Shown: positions 1,456-36,573 of the stretch, in pieces | Position numbering within the stretch: position 1 is the stretch's first letter | How the letters are laid out: every line of letters begins with the position of its first letter | Notes under the pieces: model-generated | Databases searched by the model: none | Told to the model about the DNA's origin: nothing | Seen by the model: only the letters and a program-made list of their open reading frames with translations | From: Alphaproteobacteria bacterium | GTDB taxonomy: Bacteria; Pseudomonadota; Alphaproteobacteria; Bin95 | NCBI GenBank assembly: GCA_022824105.1 | Contig: JAJEAZ010000291.1 | Span: 1-51,178 of the forward strand | DNA: 51,178 nucleotides | Direction of reading: 5' to 3' | Made by a program: the position numbers and the translations under genes

Positions 1456-2661
1456 TCAAGCCGCGATGCGCTGGACCGGGATGCCAAGCTGCCGCGCCTT
1501 GTCCACGAGATTGTCGGTGATGCCGGAGCCGGGGAACGCGATGACGCCTTTCGGCAGGAGATTGAGAAGGTCGTCATTGCGGCGGAACGGGGCGGCGCGT
1601 CCGTGCCTGTCCCAATCGGGCTTGCATACGATCTGCTGGACGCCGTTGCGCTCTGCCCAGCGCGCCGCGATCTTCTCGACGCCGGGGCCTCCGCCATGCA
1701 CGAGCACCATATCGGCGTATTTCTCGCGGGCCTTGTCCAGCCGGGCGATGACGGCGGCCGGGTCGGCAACATCCTTTCCGCCGGCGATGGCGATAAGGGT
1801 TCCGTCGGGAAGGTGCGCCGTGGTCTCGCGGTCCTTGCGGGCGCGCATGAAGTCGCGGGCGTCGATGGCGGCGGAGGTCAGATGCCCGGTCCGGCTGGTG
1901 TGCGAGCCGTGGCGCGGTCGCCAGACTTCGCCGGTGCGGGCGCGGTAGGCTTGGGCGGCGCAATCGCGGAAGATTTCCAGCGCATCGCGGCGGTCGCTGG
2001 TGTTGTGCGCCTTGTCGGTCAGCCGCTCCAGTTCCAGCGATTTGACTTCGGAGCCGTCCTGCGCGCGCTGAAGGTCGCGCAGTTCGGGCTCCATCCGGTC
2101 AAGCGCGCGGTCCAGCCGGTTGGTCTGCGCATGGAAGCAGTTGACCAAACCCCAGATCAGGCTCTCGCGTTCGTCGGCGAGCTTCGTTCCATCGGCGCAC
2201 AGGCGCTCGGCGGCAAGGTCGATGATCTCATGCACGATACCGGGCAAGTGCGAGTCCTCGAACCCGGCGCGAAGGTCGGGAAGGTCCAGCGGGTCGCCGG
2301 GGTGCAAGTTGGGGTCCTGGTCGCGGCGCACCTTGTATTCGCGGCGGCGGGTGCGCTGCTCGGCAAAGGTAAGCTCGCCATGCGGAACGGTCTTCATCCT
2401 GTCCGGGGCTTCCCACAGGGGCCGGTTGTCGTATTCGTCCGGGCCGGGGGTCGCGCCGTAGAGGGCGGCGGCTTCGCAGGCCATGGCGGTTGCCGATGCG
2501 GCGTGCTCGGGTTCCTGCCCGTCGTCGCTGTCGGTCGCGAGGCTCCCGGCGTCGATGCCGGCTTGGGCGAAAAGGTCGGCGGCGGTGGCGTCAAGGCTCC
2601 CGGTGTCGATCCCGGCTTCTGCAAAGGCGTCTGCCATGGCGCTGTCGTTGGGGTGTGTCAT
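1456..2661 (-). CDS. DUF2493 / SLOG-family (YspA-like Rossmann) protein with a long N-terminal extension
   Basis: 401 aa. The C-terminus reads GGKDVADPAAVIARLDKAREKYADMVLVHGGGPGVEKIAARWAERNGVQQIVCKPDWDRHGRAAPFRRNDDLL..PGSGITDNLVDKARQLGIPV, typical of DUF2493. Strong RBS GAGGAGAGAGGA upstream of ATG 2661. Confidence 0.85.
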   Translation of the reverse strand: MTHPNDSAMADAFAEAGIDTGSLDATAADLFAQAGIDAGSLATDSDDGQEPEHAASATAMACEAAALYGATPGPDEYDNRPLWEAPDRMKTVPHGELTFAEQRTRRREYKVRRDQDPNLHPGDPLDLPDLRAGFEDSHLPGIVHEIIDLAAERLCADGTKLADERESLIWGLVNCFHAQTNRLDRALDRMEPELRDLQRAQDGSEVKSLELERLTDKAHNTSDRRDALEIFRDCAAQAYRARTGEVWRPRHGSHTSRTGHLTSAAIDARDFMRARKDRETTAHLPDGTLIAIAGGKDVADPAAVIARLDKAREKYADMVLVHGGGPGVEKIAARWAERNGVQQIVCKPDWDRHGRAAPFRRNDDLLNLLPKGVIAFPGSGITDNLVDKARQLGIPVQRIAA

Positions 2662-2736
2662 GGTCGGTTCCTCTCTCCTCTGAAAAAAACACCGCGTTTC
2701 CCCCGGAGCGGGGTGGGCGGCGAGTCAAGCCTGGAA

Positions 2737-2823
2737 GGTCCGCAGATTGAGGCGGCCCGCACCCGAAGGGCCGCAACGCAGTGGAGGACCCGCGAAGCGG
2801 GTTGCGGGCCGCCGCTGCGGACC
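2737..2823. other. Compound GC-rich stem-loop (about 87 nt), function unknown
   Basis: GGTCCGCAG 2737-2745 pairs with CTGCGGACC 2815-2823. GGCGGCCCGC 2751-2760 pairs with GCGGGCCGCC 2804-2813. An inner hairpin ACCCGC-GAA-GCGGGT lies at 2788-2802. A further hairpin CGCCGCCC-gcca-GGGCGGCG lies at 2871-2890. The element is intergenic, upstream of the DUF2493 start. Confidence 0.4.
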
Positions 2824-3062
2824 TGGAATGGCGCGCCGCCCAGACCGATCTGGGGGAAACGCAACAACGCCGCCGCCCGCCAGGGCGGCGACACTCCCGC
2901 CGCAGGCGGCGGCAAGCGGAGCGCGCAAGGAGCGCAGCGACTGGAGGCGATAGGGATAGGAGCGGTTTCGGAGGGAGCGCCAGCGACCGGAGATATGAGC
3001 GGATAGCCCGGGCCGAAGGCATCGCCCAAATCCCACCATCCGCCTGCACGACCGAACCCGCA

Positions 3063-3398
3063 TTACGCACCGGCCCGGTCGGCCAGCACTTTGGAGGCCC
3101 ACGCTGCTGCCTTGGCCAGTACGTCCCCATGACAGGGCAGCGGCTCGCACCAGCAGGCCAGCCAGCAGCCATCGAGTTCCGCCAGCTCCTCCAGCGTGAC
3201 CTCGCCAGCCTGGATGCGGCGCCAGAGTTCCGCGCGGTATTGCGCGATCGCCAGCTCCCGCGAACAGCCCGATCCGATCCGGAACGGATTGCCCCACTTG
3301 GTGCGGCGGTCGATCAGCACGGTGTTGCCGACGACCTGCGCATATTCGAACTCCTCGCGCAGCTTCGGTTCGCTTTTCAGGTTTACGATTGCGCGCAT
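3063..3398 (-). CDS. DUF4326 domain protein
   Basis: 111 aa: MRAIVNLKSE..VLIDRRTKWGNPFRIG..AIAQYRAELWRRI..LDGCWLACWCEPLPCHGDVL. This is the characteristic WGNPF and CWC..CHGD pattern. ATG at 3396-3398 (complement). Confidence 0.85.
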   Translation of the reverse strand: MRAIVNLKSEPKLREEFEYAQVVGNTVLIDRRTKWGNPFRIGSGCSRELAIAQYRAELWRRIQAGEVTLEELAELDGCWLACWCEPLPCHGDVLAKAAAWASKVLADRAGA

Positions 3399-4591
3399 CG
3401 ACTCCCTCCTCTCTTCCCGTCGGCTTGCCCGACCCTCCGCTTCTCTCTTCCTCCCCCGGACCGGGAGCCTGCTTCGGCCTGCGAGCCGGAGGTGCGAGCA
3501 TCGCGGAACAGCGGGGCGAAGCGGGCGCGGAGCGCCGCCGGGCCGAGCGCGACGAGGTCGTCGTTGAAGTCCTTGCCGACGGGCACGATGACGGTGGCGG
3601 CGACGCCGAGCTGCGCGCAGCGCATGGCGAGGCGCTCGGCCGCAAGTGCGCCGTCCTCGTCGTTGTCGCGGGCGATCACCAGCCGCGCGAGGCCGGGCGG
3701 AGGCGCGAACGCGCCGAGGCTGCCGGCCGAGAGCGCGGCCGCCGCGCGGATCTCCGGCACGGCCGTGGTGAGGGAGAGCACGGTCTCGATGCCTTCGCCG
3801 ACGACAAGCGGCGCGCCGTCGGAAGGCGCGCCGAAACGCACCGCGAGGCCGTAGATGCGGCCGAGCGCCTTGCGCGGCAGGGCGACGCCCGCCTTGGCGG
3901 GCGAGTGGGGATCGAGCCAGGTCCGCTACACGCCGAGGATCCGGCCGCCTGTCCCGGATCCCGGATCGCGTCCGGGACAGGCTCCCGATGCGGGGTCGTC
4001 GCCGGTGACGGCGGCGACCAGCGCCGGGAAGCGGCGCACCGAGGAGCCTTCGCGATAGCGAAGCTCGGGGTGGAAGCGAAGCGCCGCGAAGCGGCAGCGG
4101 GCGAGACCGCGCGCATGCAGATAGCGCTCCGCGTGGCTGCCGGCGATGGCGCGGCAGCGCCGCCACAGGCGGCGCGCCGCCTCGGTCGCGTCATAGGGCT
4201 CGTCCGGTCCGCCTGCCGGCAGGCCGCCCGGCCCGGCGGCGTGCCCCGCACGCCAGCCGGAGCCCCCCGGATCGCGATCCGGGGCGGGCGGCAGGGCAAG
4301 GAAACGCCGCGCCTCGTTGAGCGCCGCGCGCAGCGTCGGCGCGCGCGAGCGGTGGCGGATAAGGTCGAGCAGGTCGCCATGCTCGCCGGTCGCCGCATCC
4401 GTCCACTTGCCCGGCGCGCCCGGGCCGCGCAGGCGGACGAAGAGCGAGCGCCCGCGAGCGCCGTCGAGATCGCCGCAGATCCAGTAGCGGCCCTGGCGGC
4501 GGCCGTTGGGCAGATACTGCCGGCAGACCGCCTCGGCGCGCTCGCCGAGCGCGGCGGCGATGGCGGCGGCGGGCGACGGTGGGTGCTGCAT
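3383..4591 (-). pseudogene. Toprim / DUF7146 primase-like gene interrupted by an in-frame TAG
   Basis: One continuous frame. The N-terminal 221 codons (..YWICGDLDGARGRSLFVRL..GEHGDLLDLI..) end at TAG (complement of 3926-3928). The same frame resumes as RTWLDPHSPAKAGVALPRKALGRIYGLAVRFGAPSDGAPLVVGEGIETVLSL..IARDNDEDG (toprim E and DxD motifs). Confidence 0.8.
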
Positions 4592-4762
4592 GCGAGATCT
4601 CCTTCAAACCATGCGGAACGCCCGATACCGGCCGCCCTCCGCCTCCGGCCGGCGCGGATAAGCGAGCGGCCCGAGCGAAGCGCGGGCGCGGAGCCCGGAC
4701 GGTTGGAGAGAGGAAGGCCGGGGCGCGAAGCACCGGCCGGGAGTGCGGCGAGGGCGCGCCGG

Positions 4763-5845
4763 TCAGGCGCGGGACGCATCGGCGAGCTGGCCGACGCGGA
4801 TGCGGCCGGTCCAGGCGGCGGCGCGCGCGGCGGAATCGCCGTCGCGCAACTGCCGGCGCAGCTCCATCCAGAGCCGGCCCAGCACGTTGGCGCCGCGGTA
4901 GCGGTCGCCTTCCGGCCGGGCGCCCCACCAGGGGTCGCGGGTCGAGACCTCGACGATGGCGCGCTCGCCGCTCGCGGCGAGGGCGGCGTCGATCGCGGCG
5001 GCGTTGGCCTCACGCTTCATGCGCAGCACCCAGCGCATCGCGTTCACCCGCTGCTCGTTCCAGCGGGGATCGAGACCGTCGGCCGTGCCGCGCCCGATGG
5101 CGGCCGCCTCGCGCGCCGTGGGCGCGCCGGCGATCCGGCGCTGCACCGCCGGGGCGGCGCCAAACTTGCAGGCCTGGTACAGGTGCTCGGACGTCGGAAG
5201 CGTCCACGGGCCGGCGGCGATCGGCGCCGCCAGCGGCGCGAAATTGCTGAACTCGCCCCAGGCTTCCCGGGTGAACCGAAAACTGCAAACCTCGCCGCGG
5301 TTGTAGATACGCATGCCGTCATCCTCCGCTACCGGCGGCGAGCTCCCTCCGGCCCTGCCGCGCTTCGCCCCGCCGCAAGCGCCCCTCCGCTCCGGTCCAC
5401 CGGGCTCGAATACGACGATCGAGACGCCCGCGCAGGGCGCGAGGCGGTCGACCAGCAGCGAGCGGACGGCGGGCCAGGGCAGGCCGCCGAGGCCGCAGCC
5501 GAGCGGCGGGATGGCGACGGAGCCGACGGCGCGGCGGCGGAGGATGAGGGCCAGGTCGTCGAGACCGCCGGCGATGTCCTCGATCCGGCTCGGGTCGCGC
5601 CAGTGGCGCTTGGTCGGGAAGTTGACCACGAAGCGCGCCGGCCCGGCGCCGGCGTCGAAGACGAGGCAGCGCCCGGGCCGGACCGCACGGCGCGCGCAGG
5701 CGTGCCGGTAGGCCTCGTAGTTGGCGGGGAAGCGATGCCGGAACTGGAGGGCGAGCCCCCTGCCCATCACGCCGACGCAGTTGACGGGATTGACGAGGGC
5801 CTGGCAGCCCGACCCGAAGAGGTCGCCTCGGGTGAAACGGATCAT
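4763..5845 (-). CDS. Macrodomain-NADAR (DUF1768) fusion protein, predicted ADP-ribose hydrolase
   Basis: The N-terminus MIRFTRGDLFGSGCQALVNPVNCVGVMGRGLALQF..FPTKRHWRDPS..IPPLGCGLGGL is macrodomain-like. The C-terminus IYNRGEVCSFRFTREAWGEFSNFAP..TSEHLYQACKF..NVLGRLWMELR is NADAR-like. ATG 5845 follows GGGAGC. The track ORF starts 18 codons earlier. Confidence 0.85.
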   Translation of the reverse strand: MIRFTRGDLFGSGCQALVNPVNCVGVMGRGLALQFRHRFPANYEAYRHACARRAVRPGRCLVFDAGAGPARFVVNFPTKRHWRDPSRIEDIAGGLDDLALILRRRAVGSVAIPPLGCGLGGLPWPAVRSLLVDRLAPCAGVSIVVFEPGGPERRGACGGAKRGRAGGSSPPVAEDDGMRIYNRGEVCSFRFTREAWGEFSNFAPLAAPIAAGPWTLPTSEHLYQACKFGAAPAVQRRIAGAPTAREAAAIGRGTADGLDPRWNEQRVNAMRWVLRMKREANAAAIDAALAASGERAIVEVSTRDPWWGARPEGDRYRGANVLGRLWMELRRQLRDGDSAARAAAWTGRIRVGQLADASRA

Positions 5846-5895
5846 GGGCGGTGCTCCCGGTTGGAGGAAGATCGAAGTCGAAGGGCCGGCGCGGC

Positions 5896-6480
5896 TCACG
5901 GCCGGCCGGCGCCGGACGCGAGCGTGCGGAAGGTGGCGGAAACACGGACCGCGGCCTCGCTGGCGCTGTCCGCGCGGTCGATGCCGTGCATGAAGTCCCG
6001 GCGCGCCGCGCCCGCGAGGACCAGGACCGAGCGGCGGGGGAGCACGGCCACCTCATCGCCCGGCAGGCCGTCGCGGGCGTAGGGCCGGACGGAGCGCGGC
6101 CGGAAGCGCATCGGCCAGTCGGCGGCGAGCGACAGCGAGGCGACGACGTCGCCGAAGTCGCGATGGTCGGCGTGCATGCCGATGCCCTGGCCGGGGCGGT
6201 ATTCGTTGACGATGCACTGCACCGGCGTCGCGCCCCCGAAACGGTCCCGCAGCCGCTCCGCCATGACCTCGGCCCAGCGCGGGAACGGCGCGGCCGGGAC
6301 CGGGCGGCTGGCACCGCGGTAGTCGTAGCGATAGCCGTAATGCTGCACGCGCCGGCTGAGCTCGGTCATCCAGGGCGCCGCGCCGATGCGCAGCAGCAGG
6401 CGCTCCTCCTCGGCCGGGGTGACGAAATCGGGGACGATGACGGCCCCCCGGGCGAAGACGCTCTCGGTGTTGTCGCGCAT
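5896..6480 (-). CDS. AlkB-like 2OG-Fe(II) dioxygenase
   Basis: 194 aa from MRDNTESV. It contains QCIVNEYRPGQGIGMHADHRDFG (HxD), ..RRDFMHGI.. (distal His) and ..RVSATFR (2OG-binding Arg). Confidence 0.85.
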   Translation of the reverse strand: MRDNTESVFARGAVIVPDFVTPAEEERLLLRIGAAPWMTELSRRVQHYGYRYDYRGASRPVPAAPFPRWAEVMAERLRDRFGGATPVQCIVNEYRPGQGIGMHADHRDFGDVVASLSLAADWPMRFRPRSVRPYARDGLPGDEVAVLPRRSVLVLAGAARRDFMHGIDRADSASEAAVRVSATFRTLASGAGRP

Positions 6481-6580
6481 GCTCCCTCTCCCTTGGTAAC
6501 GGAACGCCCCACCGGCGCACCTCTCCGGCTCCGGCGGCGCGCAGCGGACGGGCATGGGGGGAGGGACTCCGGCAGGGCTG

Positions 6581-6616
6581 CAAAAAGAAAGGGACCGACG
6601 CCGAAACGCCGGTCCC
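6581..6616 (-). terminator. Rho-independent terminator downstream of ssb
   Basis: GGGACCG (6591-6597) pairs with CGGTCCC (6610-6616). On the minus strand the hairpin is followed by TTTCTTTTTG (complement of 6581-6590). It lies 37 nt after the ssb stop. Confidence 0.65.
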
Positions 6617-6652
6617 AGGTTAGGGGAGGGAGGAACGAGGGACGCGAAGTCC

Positions 6653-7105
6653 TCAGAACGGGATTTCGTCGTCCAGGTCGGCGGGCGCGGAAGCCGGCGC
6701 GGCGCCGGTGTCGCCCGCCATGTCCGGGTCCGGCCGCGCGCCGCCCGCCGCGTCGCGCTTGTCGAGGAATTGCACGCGCCCGCCGGGGACCAGCAGGATC
6801 TCGGTCGAGAAGCGGTCCGAGTCCTCGCCCGGCTTCTTCCAGCGCCGGGTCTGGAGCTTGCCCGCGACATAGACCAGCCGGCCCTTCACCGCGTGCTTGA
6901 CCAGCATGTCGATCAGCCCGTCCTGGAAGGTGACGATGCGGTGCCACTCGGTGCGGTCCTGCCGCTCGCCGGTCTTGGCGTCGATATACGACTCGTCGGT
7001 CGCGATCGAGAGGTTGGCGACGCGGCCGCCGCTCTGGAGGTGGTTGACGGTCACGTCGGCGCCGAGGCGGCCGATCAGTTCCGCGCGGTTCAATCCGAAG
7101 GCCAT
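6653..7105 (-). CDS. ssb: Single-stranded DNA-binding protein
   Basis: 150 aa: MAFGLNRAELIGRLGADV..ANLSIATDESY..RTEWHRIV (OB fold), a Gly/Pro/Ala tail and the acidic tip DLDDEIPF. RBS AAGGAG. Confidence 0.95.
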   Translation of the reverse strand: MAFGLNRAELIGRLGADVTVNHLQSGGRVANLSIATDESYIDAKTGERQDRTEWHRIVTFQDGLIDMLVKHAVKGRLVYVAGKLQTRRWKKPGEDSDRFSTEILLVPGGRVQFLDKRDAAGGARPDPDMAGDTGAAPASAPADLDDEIPF

Positions 7106-8880: not shown

Positions 8881-9231
8881 TCAGACCGCCTCGGAGTCGG
8901 CGATCCGCAGCTTCCCGCCGCCGGCGGCGCGCGGCTGGCGGACGACGATGTCGCGGCCGAGCGCGGTCAGCAGGCGGAACAGGCGTTCCAGCGAATACTC
9001 GCGAAAATCCCCCCGGAGCAGCCGGGAGACGTCGAGCTCGGAGAGCCCGAGCAGCCGCGCGGCCTCGGTCTGGGTGATGCCGCGCGCGCGGACGGTATCG
9101 TCGATACGGCTGACGAGTTCGGCCTTGACCAGGTGCGCGTCGGCATCGGGAAGGCCGAGATCGGCGAAGACGTTGCCGCCGCCGCGCTCCACGGTGGTTT
9201 CGGATACGGTCATCGGTCGGGCCTCATCCAT
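8881..9231 (-). CDS. XRE-family HTH protein, HigA-type antitoxin-like
   Basis: ..VERGGGNVFADLGLPDADAHLVKAELVSRIDDTVRARGITQTEAARLLGLSELDVSRLLRGDFREYSLERLFRLL. The start is ATG 9231 (overlapping the upstream remnant stop as ATGGATGA) or ATG 9213. Confidence 0.8.
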   Translation of the reverse strand: MDEARPMTVSETTVERGGGNVFADLGLPDADAHLVKAELVSRIDDTVRARGITQTEAARLLGLSELDVSRLLRGDFREYSLERLFRLLTALGRDIVVRQPRAAGGGKLRIADSEAV

Positions 9232-9406
9232 CGGTGTTGCGGTAGTGCGCCTCGGCGAGCGCGAGCCGGCGGCGGGGCGTGTCGCGAGCAGCCTCCCGGT
9301 GGACGACGGGCCGGCAGCGGAGCGGGGAGTGGCCTTAATGCCAGACACCGGTCTCCGGGTGGTCGTCCTCGGTGTGCGCGGAGCCGGACACCACGGTAGT
9401 GCAGGT
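9224..9406 (-). pseudogene. Remnant of a RelE/HigB-like toxin gene (5'-truncated, internal TAA)
   Basis: A single frame reads TCTTVVSGSAHTEDDHPETGVWH*GHSPLRCRPVVHREAARDTPRRRLALAEAHYRNTDG*. The tail resembles the ..LHAF.KK...TP......RL......Y ends of Gp49/HigB-like toxins. Its stop overlaps the antitoxin ATG. There is no start codon, and an internal TAA lies at the complement of 9335-9337. Confidence 0.4.
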
Positions 9407-9420
9407 TCATTTGAACCTGC
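9401..9420. repeat. Perfect palindrome GCAGGTTCA-TT-TGAACCTGC at the cargo/backbone junction
   Basis: It lies 2 nt downstream of the ImmA-like stop (9423-9425) and exactly where the toxin remnant reading frame opens. It is not followed by a U tract. Confidence 0.5.
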
Positions 9421-9422
9421 GG

Positions 9423-10286
9423 CTATCGGCGTCGTCTCTTGGTGGGCCACGGTAGGACACCGTCCAGCTCTCGAAGGAGCGGTTCCTCGTCTTCCGTATC
9501 GCTCGTGTCATGTAGGAGGGGCGGGGCTTCTTCATCCTCGAACCATAGAAGCGTAAGTGTCTGATCCCACGCCCTCAGATATCGCGCTTCTTCCAGGACC
9601 TCCCCGCCCCGGCGCCAATCGCTGAACCAAACATCGGCGGCCACCTCGTCCGGCCCTGCCTCTTTGCCACCTGCGCGTAATCTGGCCGATAGGGTTTCAC
9701 GCGGAACCTCCCTCCTGGGTGGGATCCAGCCGCCCGCTTCGCGTAGCGACTTCGACCGGGAGGCGTATCTCACTACCCCTTTTTGGGAGAGAATAAACGC
9801 GCATGGCGCATCCATCACAAACGCATAGCGCGAACCTGTGGCGGTCGTTGACGCCAGGAAACGGTGTGCAAGTTCGTCGATTGCGGAGAACCCGATCTGC
9901 TCCTCTCGCACCAGGGGTTCGAATAACTGTTTGGGCAACAGCAGCTCAGCAGCGAACACGTCACAGAGAATCTCGTTCTTGGGGCGGCTGGCATAGCTCC
10001 ACCAGGGCATCGCCGAATGCTCGGACGGCAGGCCCAGGACGATGTGCGCGACCTCGTGGCAGGCTGTGAACCGCTGGCGTTCCTCACTGTCCTTTTCGTT
10101 TACGCAAATGAAGTGCTTGCCGTTGCTCTCGAACGAATATCCGGGCTCGTCGTCAGGCAGGTCCGGTTCGTAACGCAAGACCCCGCCAATGTGCCTCACA
10201 TAAGCCTCGACGGCGGGCGGCAGCCCGGAGGAATCGGTTTCGCGGACGAAGTTCCGCGCGCGAAGGACAGCCGAGAATTCATCCAT
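9423..10286 (-). CDS. ImmA/IrrE-family zinc metallopeptidase (CapP-like)
   Basis: 287 aa from MDEFSAVLRARNF. HEXXH is present as FTACHEVAHIVLG, followed by ..NEILCDVFAAELLLP. ATG 10286 overlaps the upstream HTH gene stop (ATGGATGA). Confidence 0.9.
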   Translation of the reverse strand: MDEFSAVLRARNFVRETDSSGLPPAVEAYVRHIGGVLRYEPDLPDDEPGYSFESNGKHFICVNEKDSEERQRFTACHEVAHIVLGLPSEHSAMPWWSYASRPKNEILCDVFAAELLLPKQLFEPLVREEQIGFSAIDELAHRFLASTTATGSRYAFVMDAPCAFILSQKGVVRYASRSKSLREAGGWIPPRREVPRETLSARLRAGGKEAGPDEVAADVWFSDWRRGGEVLEEARYLRAWDQTLTLLWFEDEEAPPLLHDTSDTEDEEPLLRELDGVLPWPTKRRRR

Positions 10287-10671
10287 CGCCGTTCTCTTCC
10301 GACAGAATCCTGCGGACCCTTGCCAGCAGCTGCGCGTAGTTGGGCCGCGCGCTGCCGCGGAATGCTGCGCCCGCCGTGGCTGCGAATACCTCATAAGTCA
10401 CGGTCGGATCGTTCAACACCTCGACAACCAGATCCTGCGCGGTCTCGGGGTGGGCCGCGAGGAAACGAAGCATTTCGGCTTCGCGCCGGTCCGCTTTCAG
10501 CGCACGGATGAGCTTGACCAGCACGTCCTCTGACGGCGCTACCTTTTCCGCTTGCTCGAGGCGGTGGATGTAGGCGTGGTCCGTTTGAGCGAGCTGGCCG
10601 AGCTCCCGCAGCGACAGGCCCCGTCGCTCCCGCAGCAACTGTAGGAGAAACCCCAGCCCGTTTTTTTTCAT
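10279..10671 (-). CDS. XRE-family HTH regulator (CapH-like)
   Basis: 130 aa: MKKNGLGFLLQLLRERRGLSLRELGQLAQTDHAYIHRLEQAEKVAPSEDVLVKLIRAL. It is translationally coupled to the peptidase gene and divergent from the Ubl operon. Confidence 0.9.
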   Translation of the reverse strand: MKKNGLGFLLQLLRERRGLSLRELGQLAQTDHAYIHRLEQAEKVAPSEDVLVKLIRALKADRREAEMLRFLAAHPETAQDLVVEVLNDPTVTYEVFAATAGAAFRGSARPNYAQLLARVRRILSEENGDG

Positions 10672-10707
10672 GGCCGCCCCATTGACATCAGTCGTCCATC
10701 TCCCTAC

Positions 10708-10802
10708 CTGTTGTCTGAACAAGCAACAGTGCCCCAAATCATGGTCACTGGCTGGGTTCTGCCGTTGAGCATGCTCAACTCCTTGTTGTCGTCATAGACA
10801 AC
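10708..10802. promoter_or_regulatory. Divergent promoter/operator region with three palindromic elements
   Basis: CTGTTG..CAACAG at 10708-10729. A perfect 16-bp palindrome GTTGAGCATGCTCAAC at 10764-10779. GTTGTC-gtcata-GACAAC at 10785-10802. The region lies between the HTH gene (start 10671) and the Ubl gene (start 10876). Confidence 0.45.
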
Positions 10803-10875
10803 CGGATGGTGGATGGCAACGGGCGAGCGCGCAAGCCTGCGGCCGGATTTTGGGCCTCACAACAGAGGACCTGCT

Positions 10876-11415
10876 ATGTCCACGAATCAACTGGAGATCT
10901 TTGTCCACCAGCACGGCGAGCGCCCGCAGGTGGTAACTATCGAAGCCGAGGTGACACTTCGCGCTCTTCTGTCCCAACACGGTGTCGAGGTCGAAGGAAC
11001 CGGTGAAATCTTGGTGTTCGTCGGTGAATGCGAAGACGCGCTCAAGGCGCCCGAAGGCGTCGAAAATGGCGCGGACGCTCACGTTCCTGCCGATCTGGAC
11101 CTTACCCTCGGCGACCTCGATCTGGAAAAGCACCGCCACATCCACTGCCACCGTTGTCGGGAAGTCGACACAACCATCCTCTTCGCCGGCAAGGCGCTGA
11201 ATCGCAAGTTTTCGCCGGCGACCACCGTTGAGGTGGCAACGCGATGGGCTCGCATGAATCTGCGCATGGATGGGGCGGCGGAATCGGAATTCGTTCTTCG
11301 ACTCTCCGGTACGGGGGAACAGCCGCGCCCGAATCAGCACCTGGGCGAACTCGTCCAAGACGGCGAGTGCGAGCTGTACTTCGAAGTCGTCAAGGAAATG
11401 ACACCGCAGGGCTAG
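10876..11415 (+). CDS. Ubiquitin-like protein with two predicted beta-grasp units, ending in Gly (BilA position)
   Basis: 179 aa, with RBS AGAGGA 6 nt before ATG 10876. Translation: NQLEIFVHQHGERPQVVTIEAEVTLRALL.. and ..TTILFAGKALNRKFSPATTVEVATRWA..ECELYFEVVKEMTPQG, then TAG. It is the first gene of a Ubl-E2-JAB-E1 operon. Confidence 0.75.
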   Translation: MSTNQLEIFVHQHGERPQVVTIEAEVTLRALLSQHGVEVEGTGEILVFVGECEDALKAPEGVENGADAHVPADLDLTLGDLDLEKHRHIHCHRCREVDTTILFAGKALNRKFSPATTVEVATRWARMNLRMDGAAESEFVLRLSGTGEQPRPNQHLGELVQDGECELYFEVVKEMTPQG

Positions 11416-11419
11416 TCGC

Positions 11420-11890
11420 ATGAAGTCGCCGTCACAGCGCCTCTTCGAAGCCGATCTTCGGTCTGCCGAGTTCCGCAGCGGGGTCCTGAAGGGATATTGG
11501 GAGGTCGCTGCGCAGGACTGGCCGCAGGTGGTGCTCTGGATCCGTGCCGCCTCCCGACAGGGGGCACCCGACGGATACCACGTTGCGCTTGACCTGGAGG
11601 GTTACCGTGCTGCAGCGCCGACGGGCACGTTTTGGGATCCAGCAACCGGGACCATGCTTGACGCCGCCAATCGACCGAAAGGCAAAGCGAACAGTCGCTT
11701 CGCCAAGGTATTCCGGACCGATTGGGAAGAGCGGGCATTCTATCATCCGTATGATCGCCACGCCGCGGACAGCCACCCCGACTGGCGAGTCCAGCAACCG
11801 CACCTCGTCTGGACATCGGATCACACCATCGTCGACTACCTGGAGGAATTCCATTCCCTCCTGAATTCGGATCACTACGTTGGCGTGTGA
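11420..11890 (+). CDS. E2/UBC-like protein without any cysteine (BilB position)
   Basis: 156 aa. E2-like landmarks are YRAAAPTGTFWDP (compare YPxxPPxxxF), FYHPY (compare HPN) and W..TIVDYLEEFHSLL (compare WSP..ti..vl.si.sLL). The translation contains no Cys. Ser118 sits 9 residues after His109. Confidence 0.65.
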   Translation: MKSPSQRLFEADLRSAEFRSGVLKGYWEVAAQDWPQVVLWIRAASRQGAPDGYHVALDLEGYRAAAPTGTFWDPATGTMLDAANRPKGKANSRFAKVFRTDWEERAFYHPYDRHAADSHPDWRVQQPHLVWTSDHTIVDYLEEFHSLLNSDHYVGV

Positions 11891-12377
11891 ACCCGCTGTG
11901 GAAAGACTCTCCCTGTCCGTCTGGCTGTGGGCTCGCCTGCTCGGCGACCTGAGACGCCGGGGGGAAAGGAGGCGCGAAAGCGGCGCGTTTCTTCTCGGTC
12001 GCAGCGCCGGCGGACGCGGTCGCGTAACGACCTACCTGTGCTACGACGACCTTGACCCGGATGCGCTCAAGACCGGCGCCATCACCTTTCATGCGAAAGG
12101 CTATGCCGCGCTCTCGCAGGCCTGCCGCGAGAAGGCACTTGAGGTGCTCGCGGATGTGCATACCCATCCCGGTCGCTGGGTCGAGCAAAGCTCGATCGAT
12201 CGGCGAAACCCAATGTTGCCGATAGTCCACCACACGGCCCTCATCGTGCCTTGCTACGGACGGGCTTCGCGTTGGTCGCTTAAGGGTGTCGGCGTCTACG
12301 AGTATCTCGGCGACTTTCAGTGGGCGACGCACAACTGTGTCGGCAGGCCGAAACGCGTTTCCCTCAGCCTTTGGTGA
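11880..12377 (+). CDS. JAB/JAMM metallopeptidase (BilC position)
   Basis: RRESGAFLLG (Glu) and ADVHTHPGRWVEQSSIDRRN (HxH..S..D) are present. The start is TTG 11880 (overlapping the E2 end) or GTG 11898. Confidence 0.9.
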   Translation: MACEPAVERLSLSVWLWARLLGDLRRRGERRRESGAFLLGRSAGGRGRVTTYLCYDDLDPDALKTGAITFHAKGYAALSQACREKALEVLADVHTHPGRWVEQSSIDRRNPMLPIVHHTALIVPCYGRASRWSLKGVGVYEYLGDFQWATHNCVGRPKRVSLSLW

Positions 12378-12382
12378 TAGGC

Positions 12383-13786
12383 ATGAACGACCAAAACCCC
12401 AATCTCTCGCGGATATCGAAGCTGTTCGCCGACAGGGATTCGCTTCCGACCTGGGACGGGCTCAGGAAACGGCGGCAATTCGGGGTGACGCTCGTTTGCG
12501 GTGCCGATGTGGCGGGATCCTACATGCTGCAACTCTCCGTGCTCACCGCCGCGAAGATTGCCACCCGCTGCTTTCCCCATGCCGTGCGCATCGCACTGCC
12601 TGCCCAGGTCGAAGAAGCCGCCACGTTACTCTGGCCGGGAATGAGGGATCGCCTCCCCTTCGGTGCCATGCTCCGTCAAATCGTGGGCGCTGAAAATGTC
12701 GTTGCCGACCGGAGCGATCTGGATCGCAGCAACGTGCTTATGTTCGGCGATGCGCCGGAGACCGCCGGTGCGTTGCGCGTGACCTTCGACGGATGGGTCG
12801 CGATGACGGGTCCAGCATCTCAGGTGGTCCGGCTGCCAGAACGTCCATACTGTTCGCTGGCCGCCGTCCTCTCGGCGGCATTGGCGGTCTCGGAACTGTT
12901 CCTGTCGTTCGCGGAGATTTCCGTGGAAGCAAGGCGGCGCACCGTGACGCTGTCCCTCTGGCGGCCTGAGCTTGATCCTGCCGATCCCGCTGCAATTGGT
13001 CCGGTTGTCGGGTGGTTGCCGGCCGATCTCTGGGTCCTGGGTCTCGGACACCTGGGCAACGCCTACCTGTGGGCGCTGGCGACGTTGCCCTACTCGACTC
13101 CATGTGAGGTCCGGTTCTTCCTGAACGACTTTGATACGGTAGAAGACGAGAACGTCGAAACGGGCCTGCTCTTCAGCGGAGCAGATATAGATCGCTCCAA
13201 GGCGCGGACCTGCGCCGCCTGGCTGGAACGCCGAGGACTTCAGACCCGTTTGTTCGAACGCCGTTTCGACAAGCACTTTCGTTGTCAGCACGATGAACCA
13301 AGGCTCGCGCTATGCGGATTCGATTCGAACCCTTCCCGCCGCGAGCTTGCCTCGGCAGATTTCGTGCAAGTGGTCGAAAGCGGGCTCGGAGGTACATCGA
13401 ACAACTTCGACACGTTGAGCCTTCACGCTCTGCCGAATCCCCGCAGCGTTCATGATCTCTGGCCGGATCTGTCCGACGAAGAGGAAGAGAGGCGCCAAGC
13501 CCAACAGGAGCGTGTTGCGGAAGGGAATGAGGCATATGCTCGCTCCGGGCTTGACGAATGCGGCCGGTTTGAGTTCGCCGGGAAATCCATCGCCGTTCCA
13601 TTTGTGGGAGCGGTCGCGGGCTGCTTTGTTGTCGCCGAAACGCTCCGCCTATTCCACGAGGGTCCGGCCTATACCGATATCAAGTTGCGTCTGGGAGGCC
13701 CCAAACCGCAATGCGCGCCGCGAAGTGGCCGGTACGGAGTGGAGGATACTCCCGCTCACAAGGCCACAGCCGCGCTGTCGCTGTAG
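12383..13786 (+). CDS. E1-like (ThiF/MoeB/UBA family) activating enzyme with an N-terminal degenerate and a C-terminal active adenylation domain (BilD position)
   Basis: 467 aa from MNDQNPNL. The degenerate N-terminal fold contains VCGADVAGS. The active fold contains VLGLGHLGNAYLWAL, FLNDFDTVEDENVETGLLF, DIDRSKA and CGFDSNPSRR. A charged helical insert contains DECGRF. ATG 12383 is 5 nt after the JAB stop. Confidence 0.9.
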   Translation: MNDQNPNLSRISKLFADRDSLPTWDGLRKRRQFGVTLVCGADVAGSYMLQLSVLTAAKIATRCFPHAVRIALPAQVEEAATLLWPGMRDRLPFGAMLRQIVGAENVVADRSDLDRSNVLMFGDAPETAGALRVTFDGWVAMTGPASQVVRLPERPYCSLAAVLSAALAVSELFLSFAEISVEARRRTVTLSLWRPELDPADPAAIGPVVGWLPADLWVLGLGHLGNAYLWALATLPYSTPCEVRFFLNDFDTVEDENVETGLLFSGADIDRSKARTCAAWLERRGLQTRLFERRFDKHFRCQHDEPRLALCGFDSNPSRRELASADFVQVVESGLGGTSNNFDTLSLHALPNPRSVHDLWPDLSDEEEERRQAQQERVAEGNEAYARSGLDECGRFEFAGKSIAVPFVGAVAGCFVVAETLRLFHEGPAYTDIKLRLGGPKPQCAPRSGRYGVEDTPAHKATAALSL

Positions 13787-13924: not shown

Positions 13925-14953
13925 TCACGGTCGCGAAGCCGGCGGGGAAGCGAGATTCACTTCGGTCTCCAGAGACCGGATGCGCTCGACGAGCGCCCCG
14001 AACTCCGGCGCGCCATCGCCGACGATGTGGGCGCGGCGCATGGCGTCGTAGTCCGATTGCAGGGCGGGGAGCTGGTCGTCGTCGGGGACGAGACGCAGCC
14101 GGCCGTCGAGGCAGCGGTCGTAGTTGGCGTTGCCGGCATGGAAGAACACCCTTTTGTGCCGGACGACGTCCGCCAGGAGTTCGCGGTCCGCCAGTGCGGC
14201 CCGGCCGACAGGGTGGGCGGCGAGGCAGGCGAGGTCGAACCAGTGGCGGGAGAGCCGGCCGGGCTTGTTCGCAAGCTGCCGGCGATGGCATGCGACATGG
14301 ATGAGCGTCGCCTTCTCCCAGAAGGTGCGTGCCGGCGAGAGGACGGTAACGGTCGCGGCAGGATAATCGAGCCCATCGGTCAGGGCGGCGATATCCGGAA
14401 CGATCGTGTGGCGCTCGTTCGGGTCGATGACGTTGCGACCGCCGAACTCCAGAAGGACCTCGCTTGCGACATAGCTGTCCGGCGCCTCGACCGCGGACGG
14501 ATAGGCGAAGCGGACGGTCTCGCCGTCTTCGCCGACATGGATGGCGTAGCGGCCGTCGGCGCCAAGGCGTCGGGCGGCGTCATCGAGGGCGGGTGCGACG
14601 ACATTGCGGACATGGCGTGCGACGCGGTCCTTGAGACGTTCGCCGAACCGCTTGGTCGCGGTACGGCTGGCGCCCTTGGCGAAGGGGTCGAAGCCGTCGT
14701 CGAAGGCGTGGTAGTCGAGGGTGATGTCCACGTCCTCGGAGAACCGGTCGATGATTCGATAGACCTTCGAGAGCGAGGTGCCGCCCTTGAAAGCCATCGG
14801 ATGGGGGTCGGGCATGGAGAAGAGGGCCTGCAGAACCCAGCAAACCCAGATGTCCTTCTCCAGGATGACGGCTGAGCGCCGGGCGTCGCCGGCCGCGGTC
14901 CGGAGGATATCGGCGCGCTCGCCGGCGCCGAGGGAGAGGAACGGCTCAGCCAT
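13925..14953 (-). CDS. abiEii: AbiEii/AbiGii-family nucleotidyltransferase toxin (DUF1814)
   Basis: 342 aa: ..AVILEKDIWVCWVLQALFSMPDPHPMAFKGGTSLSKVYRIIDRFSEDVDITLDY.. ATG 14953 overlaps the AbiEi stop (ATGGCTGA). Confidence 0.9.
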   Translation of the reverse strand: MAEPFLSLGAGERADILRTAAGDARRSAVILEKDIWVCWVLQALFSMPDPHPMAFKGGTSLSKVYRIIDRFSEDVDITLDYHAFDDGFDPFAKGASRTATKRFGERLKDRVARHVRNVVAPALDDAARRLGADGRYAIHVGEDGETVRFAYPSAVEAPDSYVASEVLLEFGGRNVIDPNERHTIVPDIAALTDGLDYPAATVTVLSPARTFWEKATLIHVACHRRQLANKPGRLSRHWFDLACLAAHPVGRAALADRELLADVVRHKRVFFHAGNANYDRCLDGRLRLVPDDDQLPALQSDYDAMRRAHIVGDGAPEFGALVERIRSLETEVNLASPPASRP

Positions 14954-15548
14954 GGGCCGGCTCCTCGACGGCGGCGAACGCCTTCTGCATCCAGGCCGGC
15001 ATGTCGGCGGAGCGCAGCTTCTCGAACTCCGACGGGCCGAGCGCGGCTTCGATGGTGGCGACGGTCTCCGGCGTTACGTTGTCCTTGCCGAGATACCACA
15101 GCGCGGAGATCGCGGCGCCGGTCGGCTCGCCCGCGAATTGCAGCCGGCGGCGGTTTGCGGTGTGGACCATGCGCACGGCAACGCCGGCGACCCGGATCGT
15201 GCGGGTCGAGCCGCTGGTATGGAACACGGGCGCGGTCGGCACCTGGGTGCTCAGCCTGAATCGCCTCGCGGCTTCGGCGCCGTGGATCTGGAGCGTCTCG
15301 CCATTGTTGCGCGCGATGGCCTCGACCACTTCGTGGAGGTCGGGCATGACGGTCCCGACAAACCGGTTGGTCCTCGGACGGACGAAGACGCCGTGGGCGA
15401 GACGCCGGATCTCGCCGTCTGCGGCGAGGCGGGAAAGGGTCCGGTCGACGGCGCCGCGGGTGCCGTGCTTCAGGAAACGGGCGCCGGTGAAGGGCCTGCC
15501 CCGGGGCAGCTTCCTTATGGCGGCTCGAACGGCTTTCGCAGTAGACAT
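14946..15548 (-). CDS. abiEi: AbiEi-type antitoxin / transcriptional regulator
   Basis: 200 aa from MSTAKAVRAAIRKLPRGRPFTGARFLKHGTRGAVDRTLSRLAADGEIRRLAHGVFVRP (winged-helix N-terminus). It is coupled to the NTase gene. Confidence 0.8.
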   Translation of the reverse strand: MSTAKAVRAAIRKLPRGRPFTGARFLKHGTRGAVDRTLSRLAADGEIRRLAHGVFVRPRTNRFVGTVMPDLHEVVEAIARNNGETLQIHGAEAARRFRLSTQVPTAPVFHTSGSTRTIRVAGVAVRMVHTANRRRLQFAGEPTGAAISALWYLGKDNVTPETVATIEAALGPSEFEKLRSADMPAWMQKAFAAVEEPAHG

Positions 15549-15563
15549 GGAATGACCCTTCTG

Positions 15564-15592
15564 TGTCCAAAAATATAGCGGTATTTTGGACA
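15564..15592. promoter_or_regulatory. Inverted repeat in the abiE promoter (candidate AbiEi operator)
   Basis: TGTCCAAAAATA (15564-15575) and TATTTTGGACA (15582-15592) form a near-perfect IR with a one-base bulge. It sits in an AT-rich patch 16 nt upstream of the abiEi ATG. Confidence 0.5.
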
Positions 15593-15626
15593 ATTTCAAG
15601 GAGCGGTGTTGGACCTCAGGGGCGGG

Positions 15627-15987: not shown

Positions 15988-18900
15988 TCACGCGGCGAGC
16001 GGCCAGCGGTCGAGGAGGCGCTCGACCGTCTCCGGGTTGGGCGCGAACACGCGGGTGCGCCAGGAAACGATCTCGGTCGCGCAGCCCATGCGCTTCAGCG
16101 CGGCCATGTCGGTGTCCGCCGGTCCTTCGATCTCGACCCTGTTGCCGCCCATGAGCCGCCGGCGCGCGAGCCGCCAGCCATTGGCGAGGGCGAGCGCGTT
16201 GCCCCGCTCCATGACTGCCGCGAAGGCTTCCGCGCCGGTCATGGCGGGACCGCCGTCGAGCCCGAACCCGGCGCGCACCGACTGCACCTGCTCGGCGTCG
16301 AGCACCCGCCCGATGAGCGCGATGCCGTCGTCGCTGGTGAGGCGGCGGACCCGCATGTTCTCGGCCGGCAGGCGGTCCCAGACCGGCAGCAGCAGGCCGG
16401 AGGCGAGCCAGAAGCGGGACTCGCGGTGGCTCGGCAGCTCGCCGATCTCGTGGTCCCAGAGCATGCGCCAGTGCCGCTCGTCGGTGCGCCCCCAGTTGGA
16501 GGCGACGAACTCGGCTTGCGCCATGCGGTCCCGGGTAGCGGGCCGGATCAGCTGCACGCGCTTCTGCACCCCACCATCGTCCAGCATGCGCGACGGCGCG
16601 GGCAGCAGAACAGCGGCGCGCTTGGAGCGCGTGTTGACGACCAGCCGCGGCTTCCCGTCCGGACCGGGATCGCGCGCGCCGATCTCAAGCGCCGCGTCGG
16701 CGGCCAGCGGCACCAGCTTGTCGCGGCGGACGATCTCGACCAGCTCGGTCGCCGCCCCGGTGCCGGGATGCTCGTACAGCGTCTCCCGGCCGGCGACAAC
16801 GAGCGAGTCGGCAAGGACCGTCTCGACCCCCACCTCGTAGCTGCCGGCCTCAATGGCCTGCTCGATATTGGCGGCGATGCGCTCTTCCAACTCGGCGAAG
16901 AGCTGGTTTTGCTCGGCGATGGGCAGCGCCAGCAGCCGGTTGAGGAACTTCGGCATGGGCGGCAGCTCGTCCTTGAGCCCGCCCTCATGAACGATCTTGA
17001 GGCCGGTCGAGTCCTGGAACCGTTCGGCGTTCCAGCCCTCGATGCGGCCCCGCCAGAGGGCGCTGTAGAACTGCCGCAATGCCGCTTTGGCATAGGCGGA
17101 TTCGAGGTTGTCGCTCTCGCGGAACAGCGCGGCGTCGCTGCCGCCCATGGCGGTCTGGCTGTCGCGCTGGCCGCGGGTGATGGCGCCCAGGCTGTCGAGC
17201 CGCCGTGCGATGGTCGCGATGAAGCGGCGCTCGCCCTTGACGTCCGTGGTCACGGGCCGGAACAGCGGCGCGGAAGCCTGGTGCGTCCGGTGGGTGCGGC
17301 CCAGTCCCTGGATCGCCTGGTCGGCGCGCCAGCCGGGCTCCAGCAGATAGTGGATGCGCCGCTCGGTGTTGGCGCAGGACAGATCTGCGTGATAGCTCCT
17401 GCCGGTCCCGCCGGCCATGGAGAACACTAGGATGCGCTTTTCGGCGTCCATGAACGCGGCGGTCTCGGCGAGATTGGCCGAGGCGGGCCGGCTGCGGAGC
17501 GAGAGACGCTCACCTTTGGCATCCTTTATACGCAGCACCCGCCGCGAGCGCCCGGTGACTTCGGCGACGGCCTCGTGCCCGAACTTCTGCACGATCTGGT
17601 CCAATGCCGTCGGCACCGGCGGGAGCGCCGCGAGCTTCTCGATCAGCGCGTCGCGCTGTTCCTCCGCCTCCTTGCAGGTGATGGGGTTGCCGTCGGCGTC
17701 GGTCGCCGGCCGACTCATCAGGTTGCCGTCGTCGTCGGTGAACGGCTCCTGCAACTGCACCGGAAATGCGTGCATCAGGAACGACAGGATGCCGTCCCGC
17801 GGGGTGAGGTCGATGTTGAGGTCGTCCCACTCCGAGGCCGGGATCTCGGCGATGCGCCGCTCCATCAGCGCTTCGCCGGTCGAGACCAGCTGCACCACCG
17901 CCGAGCGCCCGGCGTCGAGGTCGGCCTCGACGGCGCGGATCAGGCTGGGGCATTTCATGCCGGTCAGCAGATGGCCGAAGAAGCGCTGCTTGGTGCCCTC
18001 GAAGGCCGACAGGGCTGCCGATTTCGCCCTCTTGTTCAGCGTATCCTCGCCCTGGACGATGCCGGTCGCCTCGAGGGCGGCCTCGATGTTGGCGTGGATG
18101 ACCTTGAAGGCGCCGGCATAGGCGTCGTAGATGCGGCGCTGCTCGGGCGAGAGCGGATGTTCGAGGATGTCGACCTCCACCCCGTCATAGGCCAGGGCCC
18201 TGGCCTGGTAGAGCCCGAGCGCCTTCAGATCGCGCGCCACCACTTCCATTGCAGCCACCCCGCCGGCCTCCATGGCGGAGACGAACTCGACGCGCTTCTC
18301 GAACGGCGTCTCGCTGGCGCCCCACAGGCCGAGCCTCCCGGCGTAGGCAAGGCCGGGCACGGTGGTGGCGCCGGTGGCGGAGACATAGGCGATGCGCGCA
18401 TCGGGCAGCGCGTTCTGTAGGCGCAGGCCCGCGCGCCCCTGCTGGGACGGCTTGGTCTCGCCGCGCTCGGACTTCGACCCCGCCGCGTTGGCCATGGCAT
18501 GCGCCTCGTCGAACACGATCACGCCGTCGAAGGCATGACGGTCCTCCTCGTCGAGCGAACCGGCAAGCCATTCCACGATCTGGTCGAGGCGCGACGGCTT
18601 CCCTTGCCGGGACGGCGAGCGCAGCGTGGCGTAGGTCGCGAACAGGATGCCCTCGTCGAGCGGGATCTCCATGCCCTGCCGGAAGTTGCCCAATGGGATG
18701 ACGTCGCTCTCCAGCCCGCCCAGTGCGGTCCAGTCGCGGCGCGCGTCCTCCAGCAGCTTGTCGGACTGCGACAGCCAGAGGGCCCTCTTCCGTCCGCGCA
18801 TCCGGTTGTCGAGGATGATGGCGGCGACCTGGCGGCCCTTGCCGCAGCCGGTGCCGTCGCCCAGCATCCAGCCACGCCGGAACCTCACCGGCTCCGAAAG

Positions 18901-36572: not shown

Positions 36573-36573
36573 G

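Follow-up and report, generated by a model that had tools for sequence, protein, structure and literature searches.

Bacterial ISG15-like (Bil) operons, originally found as an "ISG15-like" system (10.1101/2022.05.11.491447), encode a ubiquitin-like protein (Ubl; BilA), a ubiquitin-conjugating enzyme (E2; BilB), a deconjugating metallopeptidase (BilC), and a ubiquitin-activating enzyme (E1; BilD). Here, we analyzed a 51,178-nucleotide stretch of DNA (referred to as the window) corresponding to positions 1 to 51,178 of contig JAJEAZ010000291.1 from an Alphaproteobacteria bacterium (assembly GCA_022824105.1). Positions 9423 to 13786 probably form a self-contained, horizontally mobile Type I Bil cassette with a divergent CapH/CapP DNA damage switch. 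The cassette is a known type of antiphage system with a known switch, and it is ordinary except for its E2-like BilB, which contains no cysteine. Judging from the families to which its genes belong, it would be inducible and would act against phages.

The closest tested relative is the BilABCD system of Paraburkholderia caffeinilytica CF1 (construct Ub12 of Millman et al. 2022), which protects Escherichia coli from several phages (10.1101/2022.05.11.491447, Table S2). It has the same gene order as the window cassette, with protein identities of 42% (BilA), 42% (BilB), 52% (BilC), and 45% (BilD), and shares with it a two-beta-grasp BilA ending in ...KEVTPQG, the BilB motif FYHPYDR, and the BilD motif DECGR. 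It differs from the window cassette in several respects: the tested construct lacked the native regulators and was driven by an arabinose promoter, two cysteines lie at the very C terminus of its BilB, and its BilA linker is rich in histidine and has no cysteine. Among Type I systems, a mechanism is known only for that of Collimonas sp. OK412 (Hör et al.), in which BilA is conjugated onto the central tail fiber of the phage and Gly163 of BilA, Cys385 of BilD, Cys113 of BilB, and the active site of BilC are all needed (10.1101/2023.09.04.556158). The Collimonas system resembles the window cassette in its four-gene order and its two-domain Ubl ending in glycine, and its E1 cysteine and JAMM peptidase are both required. 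However, the two systems are only 25 to 40% identical, BilB has Cys113 (LYIPCDR) in Collimonas and tyrosine in the window, and no CapH/CapP pair has been reported with the former.

Type II Bil was defined by Chambers et al., who also solved an E1-E2-Ubl complex and called the E2 cysteine highly conserved in both types (PMC10557695). Type II BilABCD (CEHH/6C; Ensifer aridi) follows the same Ubl-E2-deubiquitinase-E1 order as the window, and our BilB model finds its closest structural match in the Type II E2, but the CEHH motif of that E2 (Cys138, Glu144, His146, and His151 in E. aridi) is absent from the window BilB (hhalign probability, ≤31%). The Type II Ubl usually has one domain and a C-terminal tail that is removed by BilC, and the Type II E1 has a four-cysteine zinc site. 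Neither BilB nor BilD of the window had a sequence-level match to Type II Bil in the PDB. In bacterial ubiquitination-like (Bub) pathways, conjugation proceeds through tyrosine and serine oxyesters, and 31% of these pathways are associated with CapH/CapP (PMC11601596). Bub (6E/DUF6527) resembles the window cassette in having an E2 without cysteine. However, the Bub E1 also lacks cysteine and uses a crossover-loop tyrosine, and the Bub E2 has an invariant serine, whereas the window BilD keeps Cys393 and the invariant residue of BilB is a tyrosine. Bub operons also carry a DUF6527 serine protease (BubE) and fused proteins; no DUF6527 gene lies in or beside the window cassette.

The CapH/CapP pairs of cyclic oligonucleotide-based antiphage signaling systems (CBASS; E. 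coli MS115-1 and Thauera sp. K11; Lau et al.), like IrrE/DdrO and ImmA/ImmR, comprise a helix-turn-helix (HTH) repressor and an M78 zinc peptidase with a linker and a GAF domain. Expression after DNA damage, via CapH cleavage activated by single-stranded DNA, has been established only for the MS115-1 pair of E. coli (10.1101/2022.04.27.489752). Divergent CapH/CapP pairs upstream of Bil-type and Bub operons have already been published (PMC10557695, PMC11601596), and a divergent pair sharing the promoter region was reported at 15% of Type II Bil operons (PMC10557695). The window pair is likewise divergent from the operon that it would regulate and shares a promoter region with it, but its cargo is Bil, whereas that in E. 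coli MS115-1 and Thauera is CBASS.

Gene content and organization of the cassette

Two regulatory genes on the minus strand face four conjugation genes on the plus strand. The former are capP (9423 to 10286), which encodes an IrrE/ImmA-type zinc metallopeptidase (M78) of 287 amino acids (aa) with HEVAH, a downstream glutamate, a linker, and a C-terminal GAF region, and capH (10279 to 10671), which encodes an XRE-type HTH repressor of 130 aa. Across a 204-bp shared control region (10672 to 10875) lie bilA (10876 to 11415; ubiquitin-like protein with two beta-grasp domains, 179 aa), bilB (11420 to 11890; protein with the E2 [UBC] fold, 156 aa), bilC (11880 to 12377; deconjugating metallopeptidase of the JAB/JAMM family, 165 aa), and bilD (12383 to 13786; E1, starting at ATG 12383). 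The capP ATG lies inside ATGGATGA and shares 8 nt with the capH stop codon, so the two genes are translationally coupled. The bilA TAG and bilB are separated by 4 nt (TCGC), bilC starts either at TTG 11880 (11-nt overlap with bilB) or at the in-frame GTG 11898 (7 nt past the bilB TGA), and a 5-nt spacer (TAGGC) separates bilC from bilD. These junctions, read directly from the sequence, agree with the six genes, strands, and spacings given in the first-pass annotation. The range proposed there (10279 to 13786) holds five of the six genes, with capP lying to its left, and the unit is corrected here to 9423 to 13786.

Longer upstream starts at TTG 10737 (capH), ATG 10813 (bilA), GTG 12320 (bilD), and ATG 10394 (capP) were dropped. 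The conserved ATGs were chosen instead because homologue alignments, profile coordinates, and stored gene calls agree on them; for bilA, the stored call (P0390) has the identical 179-aa product. An antisense open reading frame (ORF) of 209 aa on the minus strand (10792 to 11421) spans all of bilA and has a coding-like pattern, with G+C content higher at third than at second codon positions; it is most likely an artifact of high G+C content.

A PADLOC search, which had been proposed in the first-pass annotation, recovered all six proteins essentially over their full lengths, with E values (3e-12 to 4e-128) far beyond what chance would give. Pfam matches were obtained to Peptidase_M78, HTH_31, DUF7665 (listed as "BilB-like"), Prok-JAB, and, weakly, ThiF. 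The Ubl-E2-JAMM-E1 order of Type I BilABCD is present in the window and is kept in the homologous loci from which all four genes were recovered. A sulfur carrier (ThiF/MoaD-type) reading was dropped, since the operon has genes for an E2 and a JAMM protein and BilA has a tandem ubiquitin fold.

Both family assignments made in the first-pass annotation are upheld. That of BilABCD is backed by the full-length PADLOC matches, a tandem ubiquitin model for BilA, a UBC model for BilB, the JAMM motif of BilC, and GLGHLGN plus Cys393 in BilD; that of CapH/CapP is backed by the PADLOC profiles and by best PDB sequence matches to CapP (7t5t) and CapH (7t5u). The description of the locus as a complete conjugation operon holds for gene content and fails for the textbook relay, as BilB has zero cysteines.

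BilA, BilC, and BilD have the features of Type I Bil

BilA matched the PADLOC BilA profile (2.9e-37). Its AlphaFold2 model (predicted local distance difference test [pLDDT], 86.9) matched linear diubiquitin, ISG15, FAT10, and the bacterial multiubiquitin protein 8u38 (Foldseek; E values of 1e-7 to 1e-5) over 170 to 185 columns that extend across both domains. The protein thus has the two beta-grasp domains and the C-terminal glycine of Type I Bil. It ends in ...TPQG with no extension; this end is invariant in a 55-sequence family alignment, and a C-terminal glycine was present in every BilA examined, across operons with Cys-, Trp-, and Leu-type BilB (named for the residue at the column discussed below). 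The interdomain linker is rich in histidine and cysteine (HRHIHCHRC) and is conserved. Across the family, a His/Cys cluster comprises the HxHxHCHxC linker (residues 86 to 94), G-E-C at 50 to 52, H155, and C165, and it might be a metal site. In the validated P. caffeinilytica BilA, the histidines of the cluster are kept and the cysteines are not.

BilC matched the PADLOC BilC profile (5.3e-56) and Pfam Prok-JAB (1.6e-5), and its translation contains the complete JAMM motif of the Type I enzyme (E33, H94-x-H96, S104, and D107). BilD matched the PADLOC BilD profile (3.5e-128) and gave a weak match to Pfam ThiF; its homologues carry PF27312 (BilD_N). As in other Type I E1 proteins, it has an inactive and an active adenylation domain, a nucleotide loop, and a cysteine within a helical insertion. 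The nucleotide loop (GLGHLGN) is invariant, and 118 of 119 homologues retain Cys393 (DECGR). Operons with Cys-, Trp-, and Leu-type BilB alike have the E1 cysteine.

BilB commonly lacks the supposed catalytic cysteine

The assignment of BilB to the E2 family was clear from profiles (PADLOC BilB, 8.8e-53; Pfam DUF7665, 1.5e-37) and from its AlphaFold2 model (pLDDT, 97.8), which has the E2/UBC fold of Type I BilB. The top PDB match of the model was the crystal structure of the E. aridi E2 (BilB; 8tz0_C; template modeling score, 0.53 to 0.55), followed by Ube2W, UBE2F, and UbcH7. The bilB ORF contains zero Cys codons from the preceding stop codon to its own, and cysteine is also absent from 61 of the 120 closest BilB homologue clusters. 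The active-site loop of the window protein reads FY108-H-P-Y111-D-R...H119..W122, in which the string YHPY resembles the canonical YHPN motif. Tyr111 aligns with C113 of the Collimonas BilB. Since the Collimonas protein reads LYIPC(113)DR, the aligned column is the one published as "catalytic," and the window protein has no cysteine there. The true Collimonas sequence was taken from Table S2 of Millman et al.; L095, a locus with a Cys-type BilB (C113), was considered as a Collimonas candidate but proved not to be one.

The same table provided the residue at this column for the other validated systems. The Collimonas and Cupriavidus proteins have cysteine, P. caffeinilytica CF1 has tyrosine (FYHPYDR), and Caulobacter and Thiomonas have tryptophan (IYRAWQR). 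The cysteine is therefore missing in three of the five defense-active Bil systems (i.e., those of Paraburkholderia, Caulobacter, and Thiomonas). In a census of 114 loci, for which two BilD motifs were searched in contigs from one genome per species, the column was occupied by Y (47 loci), C (40), W (12), L (11), or F (4). Because three of the five founding systems lack the cysteine and 40 of the 114 loci have it, C113 is not truly a family-defining feature. In a broader alignment of 123 sequences, column 111 (window numbering) contained C in 34, Y in 28, F in 19, W in 14, and L, M, V, or I in 23.

The rest of the loop is far more constant. Alignment of 113 representatives gave the family motif LY-x-P-X-D-R...H..W, in which Tyr108 is the sole invariant column and D112, R113, H119, and W122 are each at least 90% conserved. 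On a neighbor-joining tree of the same representatives, the state at column 111 changes about 48 times. Among Cys-type BilBs, the cysteine at column 111 is the only conserved cysteine. The ratio of nonsynonymous to synonymous substitution rates (dN/dS) of bilB genes without cysteine is 0.10 to 0.22 (i.e., purifying selection). The BilB proteins of Caulobacter sp. Root343 and Thiomonas sp. FB-6, with Trp at the C113 column, also have Gln instead of Asp112; they share another cysteine, in the beta-sheet motif L[IV]CDG[FY]P, and this column is Cys in about 20% of family representatives as well.

Comparisons with E2 proteins of known structure at the sequence level were less informative. Searches with BilB and BilD against PDB chains returned nothing usable, and the BilB family profile reached the E. 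aridi BilB (8tyz_C) only at an E value of 0.87 and over the N-terminal sheet only. In the profile alignment with UBE2D2, the crossover helix alone aligned (probability, 3.5%). The global profile alignment with Type II BilB was unreliable in its C-terminal half, and the local alignment (probability, 31%; low confidence) placed Cys138 opposite Tyr108 rather than opposite column 111.

The literature search, for which subscription-only papers were outside the scope, found no mention of DUF7665 or of Type I BilB without cysteine. The lack of the supposed E2 catalytic cysteine is common in Type I Bil as a family and was unremarked in the papers searched.

CapH/CapP regulators and the shared control region

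CapP matched the PADLOC capP profile (2.8e-55) over profile positions 8 to 242 of 242 and Pfam Peptidase_M78 (5.9e-14). Its best PDB sequence match was the Thauera CapP (7t5t_A; 3.9e-8; residues 54 to 250), extending from the peptidase through the GAF region, and the alignment to 7t5t covers residues 74 to 277. The optional cysteine switch loop is missing from the window CapP (a gap in the 7t5t alignment), as it is from 67% of CBASS-associated CapPs. CapH matched the PADLOC capH profile (2.9e-12) and Pfam HTH_31 (1e-13), with the HTH domain of CapH (7t5u_A; 6e-4) as its best PDB sequence match. Its start (MKKNG) is kept in homologous loci, and its C-terminal part (about 65 residues) has the size expected of an oligomerization domain.

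The capH-bilA spacer was aligned across six loci, including one Acidobacteriota copy. A TTGACA hexamer beside the capH start (10682 to 10687) is invariant in this alignment, as are the half-sites of two inverted repeats, O1 (TGTTGTC-N8-CAACA; 10709 to 10728) and O2 (GTTGTC-N6-GACAAC; 10785 to 10802). Each repeat occurs once in the window, compared with expected numbers of 0.00 (O1) and 0.05 (O2). O1 lies directly 3' of a weak -10-like hexamer, itself 17 nt past TTGACA. From this conservation pattern, O1 and O2 are natural candidates for CapH operators. A perfect palindrome, GTTGAGCATGCTCAAC (10764 to 10779), which also scored as terminator-like, is specific to the window; it was rejected as an operator, not being conserved in related loci.

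Type I Bil operons usually come with a switch made up of an M78 peptidase and an HTH protein. Where 2 kb or more of sequence was available upstream of bilA, an M78 peptidase gene was found within 2.5 kb upstream of bilA in 55 of 70 loci, including 36 of 39 loci with Tyr-type BilB (34 divergent and 24 with a recognizable CapH), 12 of 19 with Cys-type, 4 of 4 with Trp-type, and 3 of 7 with Leu-type. This frequency exceeds those reported for Type II Bil (15%) and Bub (31%), and it suggests that Type I Bil is normally silent until DNA is damaged.

Mobility and carrier element

The cassette moves as one unit among Alphaproteobacteria, Acidobacteriota, and other phyla. Three loci with unrelated flanks (L002, L004, and L005) share nucleotide homology with the window that starts at 9422 to 9425 and fades at 13689 to 13760, inside the 3' end of bilD. 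The six-gene arrangement recurs in genome bins of Alphaproteobacteria and Acidobacteriota, with protein identities of 45 to 90%; the capP-capH/bilABCD arrangement is also found in Paraburkholderia isolates, and the bilABCD core is also found in Planctomycetota (Isosphaeraceae). The G+C content of the cassette region (0.61 to 0.65) is lower than that of its surroundings (0.68 to 0.74).

Other related loci share the window backbone on one or both sides of the cassette (7011 to 8594 in L003/L008; 15627 onward in L003/L008, L009, and L001). L003/L008 have the cassette at the same place without the HTH_37 antitoxin-like gene (8881 to 9450, minus strand) and the AbiEi/AbiEii pair (13925 to 15599, minus strand; AbiEii, 7e-97; AbiEi, 3e-59) that flank it in the window; thus, the site seems to accumulate cargo. 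Two copies carry lesions. In L009 (BilD match, 5001 to 6401; bilB, 4034 to 4504), DECGR of BilD is changed to DEWGR and bilB has a premature TAG, and in L004 an in-frame stop lies within bilA (4530 to 5027).

The backbone of the window encodes ParB-like, single-stranded DNA-binding (SSB), Toprim, DUF2958, and strawberry-notch proteins, and a tyrosine integrase gene (50150 to 51157) lies at the right end. Homologues of the ParB-like protein are mostly on conjugative plasmids, the closest being in Roseobacter-group bacteria. These genes accord with the first-pass annotation, in which the cassette was described as cargo of an integrative and conjugative element (ICE). However, no relaxase or type IV secretion genes were found among the scanned ORFs of the window, so ICE carriage is plausible but unproven.

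A proposed mechanism and its alternatives

The features above can be assembled into a working model. CapH would bind O1 and O2 between capH and bilA and keep both transcription units low. As in the studied CapH/CapP pairs, single-stranded DNA from phage replication or DNA damage would activate CapP, which would cut CapH and release bilABCD expression. BilA already has Gly179 at its end and needs no maturation, so the role left for BilC, in contrast to Type II Bil, is deconjugation, by which it would remove misplaced conjugates. BilD, from its motifs, would adenylate BilA and then form a thioester through Cys393. By analogy with Collimonas Bil, the target may be a phage tail tip protein whose modification spoils virion assembly or infectivity.

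The step between E1 and target is the one at which the window cassette departs from the accepted scheme. The window BilB has no cysteine, and a canonical E1-to-E2 thioester relay is therefore impossible; BilB would instead pass BilA to a target lysine without an E2 thioester. Our favored route, held tentatively, is an aryl ester on the family-invariant Tyr108, aided by Arg113 and His119. It is plausible in chemical terms, it has a precedent in the tyrosine and serine oxyesters of Bub (PMC11601596), and the low-confidence alignment of the Type II Cys138 to Tyr108 is consistent with it. A wider version of this route, in which Type I Bil E2s in general form no cysteine thioester and the Ubl moves from the E1 cysteine to an aryl ester on Tyr108, is more doubtful. 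If it were true of all Type I Bil, an E2 with tyrosine as its nucleophile would be a first, and Cys113 of Collimonas would merely be one of several interchangeable bulky packing residues.

We only slightly prefer the aryl ester over a quite possible alternative, in which BilB is a noncovalent platform, similar to an E3 or a ubiquitin E2 variant, that docks BilD and the target, so that the lysine directly attacks the BilA thioester on Cys393 of BilD. Tyr108, Arg113, and His119 would then only orient or deprotonate the lysine. Such a platform would suit a protein with zero cysteines partnered by an E1 whose cysteine is universally retained, and the free exchange of bulky hydrophobic residues at column 111 looks like packing. 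Hör et al. saw no Ubl-E2 adduct even in the Cys-type Collimonas system (10.1101/2023.09.04.556158). However, an invariant Tyr/Arg/His cluster in the active-site loop resembles chemistry more than docking, and the cysteine-free bacterial E2s studied so far, those of Bub, form covalent oxyesters (PMC11601596).

The remaining alternatives concern what the cassette is for and whether it works. CapH/CapP pairs respond to DNA damage and not to phages as such, the backbone around the cassette is like that of a conjugative element, and nonimmune roles are raised in the Bub and Ubl papers; from these points, the cassette could be a protein modification module of a mobile element that responds to DNA damage or stress and serves transfer or host physiology rather than defense. 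We consider this unlikely, as phage defense is known for five Type I Bil operons, the closest tested relative among them, and the cassette has other defense genes as neighbors (AbiE, DruA, and Type II CBASS). Some copies do decay (L009 and L004, above), but that the window cassette is itself a nonfunctional remnant whose E2 lost its active site is highly improbable: its six ORFs are intact with coupled junctions, bilB is under the purifying selection noted above, the Tyr state is common to several phyla, and a Tyr-type system is active in E. coli. Least credible of all is the canonical cascade (BilD Cys thioester to BilB Cys thioester to target), which has the published Type I/II model, the Collimonas BilB C113A result, and C138 of the E. 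aridi BilB behind it but is already refuted for the window by the cysteine-free BilB, with 61 of 120 homologue clusters in the same state. The recurrence of FYHPYDR in more than 40 loci makes a sequencing error that hides a Cys codon unlikely.

Several points weigh against the interpretation offered here. Expression, conjugation, and defense are attributed to the window cassette by family analogy. The profile alignments (with UBE2D2 and Type II BilB) that bear on which BilB residue would sit at the canonical E2 active site are of low confidence. The tested P. caffeinilytica BilB has its two C-terminal cysteines, whereas the window protein has none. A generic sigma-70 scan of the control region found no promoter, so promoter positions are putative. 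Finally, the C113A mutation of the Collimonas BilB abolishes defense, so there is at least one system in which this column matters (10.1101/2023.09.04.556158). Alanine at column 111 occurs naturally in one member of the alignment only, and residues there are nearly always bulky and hydrophobic; the C113A phenotype could thus be structural.

Other defense genes and backbone features of the window

The window is a defense-rich mobile region that contains, besides AbiE, a DruA-containing cluster, a two-transmembrane (2TM) effector gene, and a Type II CBASS operon. The CBASS locus (43727 to 49184) is a second ubiquitin-related defense system in the window. Its regulator (43727 to 44965, minus strand) is a divergent, RmrA-like 412-aa fusion of HTH and M78 domains that also matches the capH and capP profiles, and its three plus-strand genes (45156 to 46295, 46292 to 47356, and 47349 to 49184) gave matches to a phospholipase effector (3.7e-94), a CD-NTase (9e-136), and a Cap2 E1-E2 fusion (2.9e-204). 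No Cap3/JAB gene was found for this operon; an ORF at 49452 to 50063 had no PADLOC match.

The DruA cluster (31560 to 41346, plus strand) encodes a DruA homologue (PADLOC, 2e-127), an SspF-like ATPase (4e-11), a 452-aa ORF without a match, and a 1,598-aa protein with a C-terminal AAA+/RuvB-like module. It looks Druantia-like, with its other components matching no profile. The lone 2TM CBASS-type effector gene (42458 to 43102, plus strand; PADLOC, 2.6e-45) has no adjacent cyclase and lies in a stretch of low G+C content (0.51); it may be a remnant of another signaling system.

On the minus strand of the backbone, the region from 1456 to 7105 encodes a YspA/SLOG-domain protein (1456 to 2661), a Toprim protein (3383 to 3841), a Macro-NADAR fusion (4763 to 5899), a 2-oxoglutarate-Fe(II) oxygenase (5896 to 6870), and SSB (6653 to 7105). 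The last two overlap as called, and their starts need revision. ARAGORN reported a tRNA-Ser(GGA) gene (16587 to 16677, plus strand) inside the strawberry-notch helicase gene (15988 to 20532, minus strand; 1,514 aa); it is probably a false positive.

Implications for Type I Bil

The locus itself adds little, as tools of the PADLOC type call Bil and CapH/CapP and a 42 to 52% identical system already defends. The accepted Bil model, in which the E1 cysteine passes the Ubl to an E2 cysteine, is inapplicable to the window BilB. By our census, this relay is also inapplicable to about two-thirds of the Type I Bil operons that species-level genomes carry, and three of the five founding systems are among them. 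The mechanistic question that this raises, a bacterial E2 tyrosine ester versus no covalent intermediate, is testable with existing constructs, and the answer bears on the evolution of E2 chemistry before eukaryotes.

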